A DNA stretch of 64,000 nt from Escherichia coli. GTDB taxonomy: Bacteria > Pseudomonadota > Gammaproteobacteria > Enterobacterales > Enterobacteriaceae. The notes under the pieces are model-generated. The model saw only the letters and a program-made list of their open reading frames with translations, did no database searches and had not been told where the DNA came from. A program made the translations under genes and the position numbers. Positions within the stretch are counted from its first letter, which is position 1; the number at the start of each line of letters is the position of its first letter. The stretch lies in assembly GCF_003790525.1 (NCBI RefSeq), contig NZ_CP033635.1, one strand, 5' to 3'. Shown here piece by piece: positions 9,853 to 44,910 of the stretch.

Positions 9853-10725
<873 letters not shown>

Positions 10726-11880
10726 TTATGCCTGCCACGGATGAATGATTACGCCTTGCACCACGCGGTTAACGGTGCCACTGGCTGATGGGGTATCCGG
10801 CGTATTGCCCATGTGCAGCGACTGCATCAGTGCAAACGTCTGGGCGTACATCAGGAAGCAAAATGCCTGCTCAACGTCGATAAAGTGACGGGACGGCGGC
10901 AGGATGATATGTGGACCGGCGGTAATAACGTCGTTGCTTTCCGCGGCGATGGCGATTACGCGCAATGCCTGGTTGTCACGGCGGAGTTCTGCCAGCAGAT
11001 CAAGATCATACTGACGGGTGTAAGGGTGGCTGGAGACAAACACCACCACCAGCGTTTCGTTATCGACCAGCGATTTCGGGCCATGACGGAATCCGGTCGG
11101 GGAATCATAAAAGGCCGCCAGTTTACCCGCCGTCAGTTCCAGCACTTTCAGCGCCGACTCGCGTGCTGCGCCCTGTAAGCCACCGCTGCCGAGATAAACG
11201 ATCCGTTTCCACGGTGCGTAACCAAACACACCTTCGCTGAAATCGCCCAGTGAGGTCAGGATCGCCTGGCAACGATCCGCCACATCGCGGAAGCTCTGGC
11301 TGTTGATCGTCTCAGGTGCGAAAACCGCGAGGCAGCTGGCCATCATGGTGGTAATGCTGCTGGTCATCGCGAAGCCGCGATCGTGCGTTTCTGCGGGCAT
11401 CAGCAGGGCAAACGCGTTGTCGCTGTTGATCGCGTTTTGGTAAAGAGCGCCCGCTTCGTTGCAGGTGATCGGCAGGTGATAGCATTCTGGTACAAATTGA
11501 TTTGCCAGTTCCACGGCGGCGACGCTTTCCGGGCTGTTGCCGGATCGACCGAAGGAGATCAACAGCAGCGGATGAGCTGGATTCAGGTAGTCCATCGGAT
11601 TAGTGACCAGATCGGTGGTCGGTACGGCGCTGAAGTTTTTACCGGTATGGCTGGCGAGCCACGGCGCGATGATGTCACCGATAAATGCCGAGGTTCCGGC
11701 TCCGGTCAGGATTACCCGCAGATTCTCTTTGCGCAGTAACGGTTCAAGGAAGTTATTGAGCGCGGAACGTAGCGCGTCGATGTTGGTGAGTGAACGGATC
11801 CATGCGCGAGGCTGATGGCGGATCTCTTCTTCAGTCCATGTACCGGTTGCGGCAGCAGCAGGGGTGTAATTTTCTGGCAT
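10726..11880 (-). CDS. agaS: Putative galactosamine-6-phosphate deaminase/isomerase AgaS (double SIS domain, 384 aa)
   Basis: ORF 384 aa; SIS-domain features; first gene of the agaS operon. Confidence 0.92.
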   Translation of the reverse strand: MPENYTPAAAATGTWTEEEIRHQPRAWIRSLTNIDALRSALNNFLEPLLRKENLRVILTGAGTSAFIGDIIAPWLASHTGKNFSAVPTTDLVTNPMDYLNPAHPLLLISFGRSGNSPESVAAVELANQFVPECYHLPITCNEAGALYQNAINSDNAFALLMPAETHDRGFAMTSSITTMMASCLAVFAPETINSQSFRDVADRCQAILTSLGDFSEGVFGYAPWKRIVYLGSGGLQGAARESALKVLELTAGKLAAFYDSPTGFRHGPKSLVDNETLVVVFVSSHPYTRQYDLDLLAELRRDNQALRVIAIAAESNDVITAGPHIILPPSRHFIDVEQAFCFLMYAQTFALMQSLHMGNTPDTPSASGTVNRVVQGVIIHPWQA

Positions 11881-11899
11881 AACTCAATCCTTAGTCTGA

Positions 11900-12060
11900 T
11901 GAACTTGACGTCGGGCGTTGTCGCTTTCGCTTACCTTTCGTTTCATTTCACTTGGTGATGTCTTTCGTTGATTAAAATCTATAGAAAAGAAACTGAAAGT
12001 TCAATGGAGAAAAAAGAAATAAAACGAAATTTGTGATCATTGAAAGAAAAGACAAGGGAA
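11900..12060 (-). promoter_or_regulatory. agaS promoter region with AgaR operator-like repeats
   Basis: Repeated CTTTCGTTTCATTTCAC / GAAACTGAAAG / AAAACGAAAT motifs upstream of agaS on the minus strand, resembling AgaR (DeoR-type) operators. Confidence 0.6.
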
Positions 12061-12099
12061 GATTAAAGGATTGCGTGATAACGTCGCTATGTTCACCGA

Positions 12100-12160
12100 T
12101 TGCCGGATGCGGCGTACCGTAGGTCGAAGAAGACGCGTCAGCGTCGCATCCGACACCGCT
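12100..12160. repeat. REP palindromic element immediately downstream of agaA
   Basis: gccggatgcggcgta...gacgcgtcagcgtcgcatccgac inverted REP pair. Confidence 0.7.
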
Positions 12161-12230
12161 GCACAGATCAAAAAGAAAGAAAAAGAAAGGCCTTACGGGG
12201 GAAGTGAAGGCCCAATAAAGGAGCAAACCA

Positions 12231-13364
12231 TCAAAACGAAGCTAATTGACCCTGAATCCAGATTTGTTGCACATGCAGCCCGCTATCCAGCGCAACGACG
12301 CTGGCGCGTTTGCCCGGTTTAAGCGATCCCAGAACACCATCAACACCCAGCATACGCGCCGGATGCAGCGATGCCATATGGATGGCTTCCGCAGGCGTTA
12401 CGCCCGTCAACTCGACCATGTTGCGCACTGCCGCATCGACAGACAGCGTACTGCCCGCCAGCCCACCGGACGCGGTACGGACAACGCCATCGTGCATCTG
12501 CACTTCTTCACCACATAACGTATAGCGACCATCCGGCATCCCGGCTGCCTGCATCGCGTCGGTGATCAGCACGATTCTCTCTTTCGCACAGCAACAACAC
12601 AGCGACATCGCCGCCGGATGTACATGATGACCATCGGCTATCAGTTCCAGCCAGGCGCGCTTGTCCGTTAATCCCGCGCCAACCATCCCCGGTTCGCGGT
12701 GATGTAAACCTGTCATCCCGTTATAGCAATGCACCAGGCCGTCGGCACCAGCGTCAAACGCGGCACGGGTTTGTTGCCAGGTCGCCGCGCTATGCCCCAG
12801 CATCACCCGTACGTTTTGCTGTTTAAGATAGCGGATGGCCTGCAATGCCCCTTCTTTTTCTGGTGCCAGCGCTACTACGCGCAAGGTGTGCTGAGAAACG
12901 GCAATCAATTGATCCAGCTCGGCAATTTCCAGCTCGCGAAACAGCTCCGGCGGATGCGCGCCTTTATTCTGCGGCGTGAAGTACGGTCCTTCGAGATAAC
13001 TCCCCAGCACTTGCGCACCAGGTCCGCCACGCTGGCAGCGTAGAGCAATACGTTTCAGCGCCGCATGAATGGTATTAAGCGGCGCGGTTACGGTGGTCGG
13101 TAACCAACTGCCGACACCTTCGCGTGCCTTGTGCATTGCCAGCTTGTCGAGCGCATCCGGCGCATCATCCATTACATCAACGCCCGCACCACCGTGTACA
13201 TGGGTGTCGATGTAAGCGGGACAGAGCAGTTCCGCATCGCGTTCAGTCACGCCCACTGGAATCGGTTCGATTGCTGCGATTACACCGTCAGCAATACGCA
13301 ACTGATGGTCATCGAGCCATCCCTCTTCAGTCAGCAGCCTTCTGGCGCGCAGAACGTGTGTCAT
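12231..13364 (-). CDS. agaA: N-acetylgalactosamine-6-phosphate deacetylase AgaA, full length (377 aa)
   Basis: ORF 12231-13385 trimmed to MTHVLRARRLLTEEGWLDDHQL; NagA-like amidohydrolase; intact, unlike the truncated K-12 allele. Confidence 0.9.
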   Translation of the reverse strand: MTHVLRARRLLTEEGWLDDHQLRIADGVIAAIEPIPVGVTERDAELLCPAYIDTHVHGGAGVDVMDDAPDALDKLAMHKAREGVGSWLPTTVTAPLNTIHAALKRIALRCQRGGPGAQVLGSYLEGPYFTPQNKGAHPPELFRELEIAELDQLIAVSQHTLRVVALAPEKEGALQAIRYLKQQNVRVMLGHSAATWQQTRAAFDAGADGLVHCYNGMTGLHHREPGMVGAGLTDKRAWLELIADGHHVHPAAMSLCCCCAKERIVLITDAMQAAGMPDGRYTLCGEEVQMHDGVVRTASGGLAGSTLSVDAAVRNMVELTGVTPAEAIHMASLHPARMLGVDGVLGSLKPGKRASVVALDSGLHVQQIWIQGQLASF

Positions 13365-13795
13365 ATTCCTTCCTCGACCGGACATTCCTCATGGCAGCGA
13401 CCAAGTTCGTCCACCAGACTGGTTAGCCCACGGTGTCCACACTCCAGCGCCTGCACACGGAACTCTTCACCGCTTAACCCTTCGCGTTCCAGCACCATTT
13501 CCAGTAATAGTTGCAAATTTGTGCCGGTGATCACTTCACAGCCCGGTTTTTGCATCGCCAGCGTTGAAGCTACGCGAAACGGCGTGCCGCCCAGCAAATC
13601 CGTCAGAAAAACAATGCCGTCTTCACAATCCAGTTGGACGATGGCCTCTTCAAGCTGCGATGTAAGCAGCGCGGTGCTTGAGGTTTCCGGAAAATCGATG
13701 GCGATAAACTGCGATTGCTCACCGAGAATTTGCTTCATTGCTTTTTCCATGCCGCTGGCAAATCCGCCATGCCCTGTCAAAATAATACTTAACAT
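13361..13795 (-). CDS. agaF: PTS N-acetylgalactosamine-specific EIIA component AgaF (144 aa)
   Basis: MLSIILTGHGGFASGMEKAMKQILG (mannose-family IIA); 4-bp overlap with the agaA start. Confidence 0.9.
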   Translation of the reverse strand: MLSIILTGHGGFASGMEKAMKQILGEQSQFIAIDFPETSSTALLTSQLEEAIVQLDCEDGIVFLTDLLGGTPFRVASTLAMQKPGCEVITGTNLQLLLEMVLEREGLSGEEFRVQALECGHRGLTSLVDELGRCHEECPVEEGI

Positions 13796-15966: not shown

Positions 15967-17247
15967 TTATTGGCCTTCACAGGCTGTGTGGTACTGCGCC
16001 AGGATGTCCTGAATATGGTTGATAATGAGTTCCCGTGGTGTTGGCTGCAGCTCGCCGGAGCGAACTTTCACGTATTGCAGCGGCAAATACTGGCTGATCA
16101 GCGGTAGCGGAATTGGTGAATCCGCCAGATTACGAACCAGATGAGCGAAAGCGTCATCAATCTGGCTGTCCGGCCAGTAATAGCGCACGCGATCCGAGTA
16201 GCTATAACCACGCGCCAGACGACGCGCGTTGCCGTCACCGTGGTAGTGGCTTTGCCAGTATTCCGGGCGGTCGAGCATCACGTTTTCCAGCACCTGACGC
16301 AGACCAGAACAGGCTTTTGCTGGTACCAGTTCTTCTTCAATCGCCGCCAGAGAGAACAGAGCTTCACGCAGAGCAAAGGTCAGCGCCGGGCCAACTTTCA
16401 GAATGGCAAAGTGGTCAATCACCAGCTGGCGCAGCGATTGCGGCGTTTGGTAATCAGTAGAGTGCGCTTCGAAAATCAGCGTTTCGTAGTTTTCGACCAT
16501 CTGGCTTAAGGCGGTCGCTTTGACGGGCTGATAATCAATAACGTTGGTGTGATCGAATTCGACGCCGGGTTGAACCACCAGGGCAATAATGCGTGGCCAG
16601 ATGGCACTCAGACCTTGCTTTTCAAAGGCGTGACGATGGGCTTCCAGCGTGGCGCGGGCGGCATCCGGCGTGGTGACCGCCAGCTCGCTTAAGGTTTCAT
16701 GCGCGCCGCCAGGTACCGGTACTTCGGTACCAATGACATACTCCAGATCGGCCGCGCCAAAATGTTCACGGCAGGTTTCTTCCGCCACTTTCGCCAGACG
16801 AGCGGCGCGTTCGGCCACGATGTCATCAGTTAAGGGAATCGGATCGTCCTGACAGGACATGCTGCAATCAAGGTGAATTTTTTTGAATCCTGCCGCCACG
16901 TAGCTTTTAATCAAATCATCGGCATTGGCCATTGCCTGAGCGGCAGGCAGGTTTTGCCAGCGGTTTGGCCCCAGATGGTCGCCACCCAGAATCAACGCAT
17001 CCTGTGGGAAATTCAACGAGTCGGCGAGCTGACAAACAAAGCCGCGAAAATCGGCGGGCGTCATTCCGGTATAACCGCCGAACTGGTCCACCTGATTGGA
17101 GGTTGCTTCAATCAGTAACGGCGTTTGGTTTGCACTGGCGTAGCGGATTGCAGCTTCCAGCACCAGCGGATGTGCGGAACAAACGGCATAAATCCCATTT
17201 GTTTTGCCCTCTTTGTGCTGTCTCACCATTTCTGTCAGATGTTTCAC
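15967..17247 (-). CDS. kbaZ: Tagatose-bisphosphate aldolase non-catalytic subunit KbaZ (426 aa)
   Basis: [37 protein letters not shown]... Confidence 0.92.
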
Positions 17248-17495
17248 TTTCCTCTCCAGTTCAGATTACTGCGATATTAATCTTTCGTTTTGTTTCAGTT
17301 GATACTGCGCCATGGTGAGATAAAAATAAAACGAAAGATAATGGTTTTCTGATCTGATTCACAAAAGAAACATAATGAAAGCCACTGAAACGAGAGTAGC
17401 TTGCGCCAATGGGTAAGGTGGGCTTGCATTTGCTTAATAGAAAGGCGTTAATAGGCAAAACGAAATGAAACGAAAGTTTTACGAAAGGACTTACT
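17248..17495. promoter_or_regulatory. Divergent kbaZ / agaR control region with multiple AgaR operator-like repeats
   Basis: ctttcgttttgtttcag, aaaacgaaagata, ctgaaacgagagt and aaaacgaaatgaaacgaaagttttacgaaagg repeats between the divergent kbaZ and agaR starts. Confidence 0.65.
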
Positions 17496-18305
17496 ATGAG
17501 TAATACCGACGCTTCAGGTGAGAAGCGAATGACAGGCACCAGCGAGCGACGAGAACAGATCATTCAGCGTCTGCGACAGCAAGGGAGTGTGCAGGTTAAC
17601 GATCTGTCGGCATTGTATGGCGTATCTACTGTGACGATCCGCAACGATCTGGCGTTTCTGGAAAAGCAGGGGATCGCTGTGCGTGCCTATGGTGGCGCGT
17701 TGATCTGCGATAGCACAACGCCGTCAGTCGAGCCATCAGTGGAAGATAAAAGCGCACTGAACACCGCGATGAAACGCAGCGTTGCGAAAGCTGCCGTTGA
17801 GTTGATTCAGCCTGGTCATCGGGTGATCCTCGACTCCGGGACCACCACTTTTGAGATTGCTCGTCTGATGCGCAAGCACACCGACGTAATTGCGATGACC
17901 AACGGTATGAACGTGGCTAATGCGTTGCTGGAAGCGGAAGGCGTTGAGCTGCTGATGACCGGGGGGCATTTGCGCCGTCAGTCGCAATCTTTTTACGGTG
18001 ATCAGGCTGAGCAATCGCTGCAAAATTACCACTTCGATATGCTGTTTCTTGGTGTAGATGCGATCGATCTGGAGCGCGGCGTCAGCACGCATAATGAAGA
18101 TGAAGCCCGTTTAAACCGTCGGATGTGCGAAGTTGCGGAACGGATCATCGTGGTCACCGATTCCAGTAAGTTCAACCGTTCCAGTTTACATAAGATCATT
18201 GATACTCAACGTATCGACATGATCATTGTTGATGAAGGCATTCCTGCGGATAGTCTGGAAGGACTGCGAAAGGCTGGGGTTGAAGTGATTCTGGTCGGGG
18301 AGTGA
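17496..18305 (+). CDS. agaR: DeoR-family transcriptional repressor AgaR of the aga regulon (269 aa)
   Basis: N-terminal HTH (..[26 protein letters not shown]..) and DeoR C-terminal sugar-phosphate-binding domain. Confidence 0.93.
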
Positions 18306-40447: not shown

Positions 40448-40552
40448 GTGCCGGATGCGATGCTGGCGCATCTTGTCCGGCCTACGGGGTGCGCAATTTG
40501 TTGATGTTGTTGTGTTTTGTAGGCCGGATAAGGCGTTTACGCCACATCCGGC
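40448..40552. repeat. REP/BIME element pair downstream of cyuA
   Basis: gccggatgcgatgctggcgcatcttgtccggcctac ... tgtaggccggataaggcgtttacgccacatccggc. Confidence 0.8.
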
Positions 40553-43589: not shown

Positions 43590-43700
43590 AAAATTGCCAG
43601 ATGCGCTACGCTTATCTGGCCTGCGCGGTCATTGCAACATATTGAATATAAATGTTTTGTAGGTTTGATAAGGCGTTTACGCCGCATCCGACATGAACAA
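43590..43700. repeat. BIME/RIP-like composite REP element (REP, AT-rich spacer, REP)
   Basis: ...gccagatgcgctacgcttatctggcctgcg...ttgaatataaatgttttgtaggtttgataaggcgtttacgccgcatccgaca. Confidence 0.75.
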
Positions 43701-44794: not shown

Positions 44795-44910
44795 CGCAAA
44801 ACTGCCTGATGCGCTATGCTTATCAGGCCTACGAGGTTTCTGCAATGTATTGAATTTGCATGTTTTTGTAGGCCGGATAAGGCGTTCACGCCGCATCCGG
44901 CATGAACAAC
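44795..44910. repeat. Second BIME/RIP-like composite REP element, paralogous to the one at 43590-43700
   Basis: ...gcctgatgcgctatgcttatcaggcctacg...ttgaatttgcatgtttttgtaggccggataaggcgttcacgccgcatccggca. Confidence 0.75.

Follow-up and report, generated by a model that had tools for sequence, protein, structure and literature searches.

The 350 bp that separate agaA from agaS in this E. coli strain are best read as the boundary between the two catabolic operons of the aga cluster, made up of a transcription terminator, a REP element and a sigma-70 promoter, Ps, that is repressed by AgaR. The probability of this reading is put at about 90%. In the proposed mechanism, transcription from Pz through kbaZ-agaVWEFA would end at a hairpin and T-tract just past agaA, and a REP pair (a BIME remnant) would have been inserted behind that terminator in the Escherichia lineage. 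Ps (TTGAAC-17-TAGATT) would drive agaS-kbaY-agaBCDI. AgaR, encoded 5.6 kb away in the window (the whole 64-kb stretch of DNA that was analysed), would bind operators built of TTTCR repeats that bracket and overlap Ps. Bound AgaR would enclose the core promoter, with RNA polymerase blocked, excluded or trapped, and an inducer derived from GalNAc or GalN would release the repressor.

The agaS promoter and its control by AgaR are already known, both having been characterised experimentally in K-12 twenty years ago. The passages of PMC3668189 that deal with this work, citing Ray and Larson (2004, Mol Microbiol 51:813), name three promoters in the aga cluster, PR, PZ and PS, and describe binding of AgaR upstream of agaS and induction of Ps by GalNAc. 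For single-copy fusions in K-12, the same passages give an induction by GalNAc of 5-fold for Pz-lacZ and 20-fold for Ps-lacZ. The physiological inducer of AgaR is still unclear (PMC4694137). The initial annotation of this DNA had arrived at the textbook reading, and this reading is supported here as correct. What the present analysis adds is a precise map for a strain with a complete cluster, a covariation-supported terminator between the two operons, an operator and promoter layout that is fixed across Enterobacterales, and the recognition of the REP element as a lineage-specific insertion with two alleles. These additions are of use for regulon databases and for GalNAc-inducible expression systems; the understanding of the aga system is unchanged, and they change little beyond annotation.

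Gene organization of the aga locus

The RefSeq annotation and the list of open reading frames agree that positions 11881-12230 are exactly the 350-bp agaA-agaS intergenic gap, with both genes on the minus strand, and the gene names and boundaries proposed earlier hold. The agaA gene (12231-13364, minus strand) ends with its stop codon at 12231-12233, which is also the end of the kbaZ-agaVWEFA transcription unit. That unit begins with kbaZ (15967-17247, minus strand), followed by agaV, agaW, agaE and agaF. On the other side of the gap agaS (10726-11880, minus strand) starts with the ATG at 11878-11880 and is followed by kbaY, agaB, agaC, agaD and agaI. The repressor gene, annotated AgaR, lies at 17496-18305 on the plus strand. 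The whole aga/gam cluster is therefore contained in the window, and it is complete in this strain. The K-12 cluster differs in that agaW and agaA are pseudogenes, with a 2.3-kb deletion, whereas agaW, agaE, agaF and agaA are all full length here. AgaR is intact and carries the Pfam domains HTH_DeoR (1.9e-21) and DeoRC (3.3e-55); by Pfam, AgaS is a SIS-domain protein and AgaA an amidohydrolase.

The gene at 12231-13364 is named nagA (N-acetylglucosamine-6-phosphate deacetylase) in the RefSeq annotation made by PGAP, and it is called agaA here by its position in the cluster. The nagA label could mislead automated pathway calls.

The 350 bases are 100% identical to those of E. coli SMS-3-5 (NC_010498.1, 3513767-3514116), and 5410 of 5426 complete E. 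coli genomes contain similar sequence. An Rfam scan of 10500-13500 with E-values up to 1 returned no RNA family. An 84-aa open reading frame at 11972-12226 on the minus strand was considered as a gene and rejected; it spans the REP element, the terminator and a variable spacer, and none of these is kept as coding sequence from one allele or genus to another.

AgaR operator motifs in the agaA-agaS gap

The motif statistics point to specific binding sites. In 11881-12230 there are seven copies of CTTTC/GAAAG, compared with 1.9 +/- 1.3 in dinucleotide shuffles, and only 3 of 1000 shuffles reach seven. The longer pattern TTTYRTTTY occurs four times (0.34 expected; none of 1000 shuffles reaches four) and TTTCRTTT three times (0.24 expected). 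When all 350-bp segments of the 64 kb were compared, equal or greater motif richness was found only in the agaR-kbaZ intergenic region.

A 24-nt AgaR operator consensus, WRMMTTTCRTTTYRTTTYNYTTKK, is said to come from the 2004 work of Ray and Larson, and its validity for this analysis rests on where its matches fall. With up to three mismatches allowed, six matches occur in the 64 kb against 0.08 expected, and the two aga control regions account for all of them, with three in agaA-agaS and three in agaR-kbaZ. Those in the agaA-agaS gap have no mismatch at 11932-11955 (plus strand), one at 12010-12033 (minus strand) and three at 12169-12192 (minus strand). A PWM trained only on four agaR-kbaZ sites, and so independent of the agaS sites, was used to scan both strands of the window. 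The best matches outside the training set were the same three sites, with scores of 21.5, 19.1 and 18.8, and the next, weaker matches were also in the agaA-agaS gap, at 12041-12064 (14.9) and 11978-12001 (14.3). Outside the aga regions no match in the window scored above 12.9. In the direction of agaS, the sites at 12010-12033, 11978-12001, 12041-12064 and 12169-12192 are forward and the one at 11932-11955 is inverted. The string cgctttcgcttacctttcgtttcatttcac quoted in the initial annotation lies at 11922-11951 on the plus strand, antisense to agaS. The statement that the region holds several direct and inverted copies of an AgaR-type motif is thus borne out by the consensus search and by the shuffles. 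Its assignment to AgaR agrees with the fit to the AgaR consensus, the recurrence in the agaR-kbaZ control region and the intact agaR gene in the window.

The order and strand of these elements had been described less exactly. The region was read along the plus strand as an operator array followed by a REP element, but the genes are on the minus strand and the REP element precedes the operators.

It could be argued that the CTTTC and TTTCG copies are a by-product of T-rich, low-complexity sequence to which nothing specific is bound. The region is 43% G+C and has long T runs, and TTTCG alone is not above shuffles in 11881-12230 (4 versus 2.9). However, the longer motifs are far above dinucleotide shuffles, the 24-nt pattern is found again only beside agaR and kbaZ, and in about 25 genera the sites stay unchanged at set positions while their flanks are free to vary. 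A by-product of base composition is hence extremely improbable.

A second alternative is that the sites are operators for a regulator other than AgaR, either a DeoR-family paralogue or a global factor. Operators in the DeoR family can resemble one another, and the predicted TagR operators, CTTTCAAAATGAAAGTAAA, have a CTTTC core (PMC12226905). The motif is, however, common to agaR's own promoter region and is conserved alongside the aga genes, and in the passages of PMC3668189 on Ps the binding there is assigned to AgaR. A different regulator is considered very unlikely, and the sites are treated below as AgaR operators.

The agaS promoter and its operators

The only sigma-70-like hexamer pair in the gap with at least 8 of 12 matches lies between the operators. 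It consists of a predicted -35 hexamer, TTGAAC (11999-12004, minus strand), and a predicted -10 hexamer, TAGATT (11976-11981, minus strand), identified by a motif pair scan and by conservation. The pair matches the consensus at 8 of 12 positions, and the region yielded no promoter in a simple scan run at the default threshold. The 17-nt spacer reads CTTTCAGTTTCTTTTC and contains a further CTTTC site. From this pair the transcription start of Ps is predicted to be near 11969. The agaS gene has a Shine-Dalgarno sequence, TAAGGA, at 11888-11893 (minus strand), which is invariant in an alignment of 17 genera.

The upstream operator, CAAATTTCGTTTTATTTCTTTTTT (12010-12033), is forward and would lie at about -41 to -64 from the predicted start. 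A weaker AgaR-like site, AACTTTCAGTTTCTTTTCTATAGA (11978-12001), covers the promoter spacer and the -10 hexamer; its CTTTC and TTTC columns are invariant. The downstream operator, TACCTTTCGTTTCATTTCACTTGG (11932-11955), is inverted; at about +15 to +38, it would be part of the 5' UTR. The weak site at 12041-12064 is not conserved across genera. Neither are two extra copies of CTTTCG at 11924 and 11962 (within 11921-11970, plus strand), which are specific to Escherichia.

The abstract of the 2004 paper by Ray and Larson reportedly places the AgaR sites "upstream from the start sites". This may conflict with an inverted operator downstream of +1. If all the AgaR sites at Ps lie upstream of the start, the true start would be further downstream than about 11969.

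Multi-operator repression is a familiar arrangement in the DeoR/GlpR family, in which DeoR is an octamer and GlpR and UlaR are tetramers (in part in PMC10991401). Ps shares with these systems an oligomeric repressor and several spaced operators around the promoter, which implies cooperative binding. The operators themselves are different in form: those of GlpR are palindromes, whereas the AgaR sites are runs of TTTCR pentamers. AgaR is described as a tetramer in a passage of PMC10991401 citing Ray and Larson (2004). Given this and the fixed spacing of 77-79 bp, the two strong sites are most likely bound cooperatively. Cooperative binding, looping and promoter occlusion by AgaR at Ps are what we infer from this arrangement.

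Conservation across Enterobacterales

A scan of species-representative genomes with AgaS as the query gave 80 loci in about 25 genera of Enterobacterales. In all 80 loci agaS follows agaA, or agaF where agaA is absent, with a gap of 240-505 bp that is mostly 245-350 bp. Among 75 loci outside Escherichia, 71 have a forward AgaR-type site whose centre is near -142 from the agaS ATG and 74 have an inverted one near -65; in 70 the two are 77-79 bp apart from centre to centre. TTGnnC-17-TAnATT is present in 70 of these 75 loci, and the weaker site over the spacer scores at least 12 in 42. In shuffled gaps a PWM score of 14 was reached in 2.5% and a score of 20 in none.

In the 17-genus alignment, invariant columns are found only in the forward operator (12028-12012), from the -35 to the -10 hexamer (12004-11976), in the inverted operator (11952-11935), in the ribosome binding site and in the ATG. 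As a phylogenetic footprint, these columns support the operators and the predicted promoter independently. The invariant hexamers argue for the assignment of TTGAAC-17-TAGATT as the putative Ps, and the internal promoter proposed in the initial annotation is in keeping with a hexamer pair and operators that hold fixed positions in about 25 genera.

Could agaS be expressed mainly by read-through from Pz, with no functional internal promoter and with the AgaR sites acting only as elongation roadblocks? The hexamers are weak, the default scan passed over them, and the inverted site could be a roadblock. Several observations are at odds with this view. The region is preceded by a conserved terminator with covariation, and the -35 and -10 positions do not vary from genus to genus. 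K-12 keeps the region unchanged despite the agaW-agaA deletion upstream of it, and the relevant passages of PMC3668189 report Ps-lacZ fusions that are active and inducible. Read-through as the main source of agaS mRNA is judged to have very little chance of being right, and an AgaR-controlled Ps remains the preferred reading.

Many Enterobacterales lack agaA and have agaF directly upstream of agaS with the operator and promoter layout kept (loci L011, L025, L034, L039-L041, L050, L055, L057, L060, L070, L075, L078-L081 and L083-L086). Two loci, L013 and L033, lack intervening PTS genes and have kbaZ immediately before agaA.

The probable terminator downstream of agaA

The element directly behind the agaA stop codon, which was absent from the initial annotation, is a hairpin followed by a T-tract (12213-12170). 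The hairpin, GGGCCUU.CA...UG.AAGGCCU (12188-12213, minus strand), has a folding energy of -10.2 kcal/mol. It is G+C-rich and is followed by an 18-nt T-rich tract (12170-12187), and with its position downstream of the stop codon it has the shape of an intrinsic terminator. Each of the 5 consensus stem pairs shows compensatory changes among 40 sequences from other genera, such as C-G to U-A in 10 of the 40 and U-A to G-C in 13 of the 40, and the loop varies freely. This covariation supports a function at the RNA level, that is, the termination of the kbaZ-agaA transcript, as the probable role of 12213-12170. A built-in terminator scan did not report the hairpin at 12188-12213; its loop may be outside the hairpin criteria of the scan. 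The only terminator-like match that the scan did return, 12156-12135, was rejected as the stem of the REP element with a poor tail, GTCTTCTTCG.

The T-tract behind the hairpin, CTTTCTTTTTCTTTCTTTTT, is also the AgaR-like site at 12169-12192. No other T-rich sequence of the window scores as an AgaR-type site by PWM. A CTTTCTTTTYCTTTC-like tract, with its C residues included, is present in 62 of the 75 loci outside Escherichia. Since the C residues at 5-nt intervals are kept in most Enterobacterales, the T-tract may serve two roles. It is conceivable, though rather doubtful, that CTTTCTTTTYCTTTC acts both as the U-tract of the terminator in RNA and, in DNA, as a distal AgaR operator that loops to the operators at Ps. 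If this were true, the REP/BIME insertion in Escherichia would have shifted the T-tract site from about 102 to about 159 bp off the main operator, and the two common E. coli REP alleles could adjust how strongly Ps is repressed or how stable read-through mRNA is. Preservation of helical phasing across the insertion was considered and is unsupported; the change in spacing from 102 to 159 bp is 57 bp, or about 5.4 turns.

The REP element and its alleles in E. coli

A complete REP element, GTCGGATGCGACGCTGACGCGTCTTCTTCGACCTAC, which we assign to type Z2 by comparison with the REP consensus, is found at 12119-12154 on the minus strand by its head pattern and palindrome. It reads GTCGGATGCGACGC...CGACCTAC, an imperfect palindrome in extragenic DNA that has the conserved head and a GTAG/CTAC end. 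The initial annotation was right that there is a REP palindrome in the gap. It was placed right after the agaA stop codon, however, and it begins about 76 nt past the stop with the terminator in between. It abuts an inverted Y-type REP that is truncated to its head, GCCGGATGCGGCGT (12099-12118, plus strand), and beyond this is a 29-nt segment, GGTGAACATAGCGACGTTATCACGCAATC (12069-12097, minus strand). The gap thus has two REP heads, at 12102-12115 (plus strand) and 12141-12154 (minus strand).

The element shares with the REP and BIME sequences of E. coli (Z2 and Y) the imperfect palindrome, the GTAG/CTAC end, the GCCKGATGCGRCGY head and the presence of other copies in the window, and it differs from them in that the second REP is cut to its head and in that the element is between a terminator and a promoter and not directly after a stop codon. 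Eight REP heads occur in the 64-kb window against 0.32 expected, and in most E. coli genomes the REP portion of the gap has a match at a second location. The further heads in the window are at 2160-2243, 40450-40552, 43679-43692 and 44888-44901, and two of these locations have inverted, BIME-like pairs.

Seven E. coli alleles with 88-100% identity to the query were aligned. They hardly differ in the terminator or between about 12065 and the agaS ATG, and the variation is concentrated in the REP part. The two common alleles are the SMS-3-5 type, in roughly 2900 records, and the K-12 type, in roughly 2500, both counts being rough figures from identity bands. The K-12-type allele has a full-length inverted Y-type REP, which gives a Z2/Y pair, and is without the 29-nt segment. 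The SMS-3-5-type allele, to which the present sequence belongs, has the 29-nt segment and is without the linker and tail of the Y-type REP, so that its Y-type copy is a head of only 14-17 nt. The Ps region of K-12 is accordingly the same in locus, repressor and downstream operon (agaS-kbaY-agaBCDI) and nearly identical from about 12065 to the ATG, but it has the other REP allele in place of the truncated Y-type REP and 29-nt segment found here. The divergent Escherichia E69 (locus L011) has both pieces, with the inverted Z2/Y pair complete. Because E69 carries both, the two common alleles look like independent deletions from a longer ancestor, and this is what the comparison of alleles suggests.

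Outside Escherichia the REP element is absent; other genera have an AT-rich spacer in its place, and Enterobacter has almost nothing. The REP pair probably has no effect, or at most a protective one on read-through mRNA. In the feature rows of NC_000913.3 (K-12 MG1655) there is no repeat_region in the agaA-agaS gap (locus L002, 4627-4976) despite the full Z2/Y pair.

CRP and the agaR-kbaZ control region

Directly upstream of the forward operator, at 12032-12038 on the minus strand, is a GATCACA block (TGTGATC on the plus strand) that hardly varies among the 17 aligned genera. The block contains a GATC (Dam) site and does not belong to the AgaR consensus found at the other sites. It may be half of a CRP site; its centre would be at about -70.5 relative to the predicted start, a class I distance. 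A full CRP site at Ps was rejected. The best match to TGTGA-N6-TCACA, at 12032-12047, has three mismatches and is not above chance, with 198 such matches found and 228 expected, and only the TGTGA half is conserved.

The divergent Pz/PR region between agaR and kbaZ (17248-17495) uses the same 24-nt motif as the agaS region, and in both several forward sites are followed by one inverted site near the first gene. The two regions differ in that Pz/PR has a good CRP site and neither a REP element nor a terminator, while the agaS region has only the conserved TGTGA half-site. The CRP site of the agaR-kbaZ region, TCTGATCTGATTCACA (17348-17363), has one mismatch and is beside an AgaR-type site. Pz needs cAMP-CRP, and a CRP site predicted at this position fits that requirement. 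The CRP site next to an AgaR-type site at 17348-17363 parallels the layout of the GATCACA block and operator at agaS.
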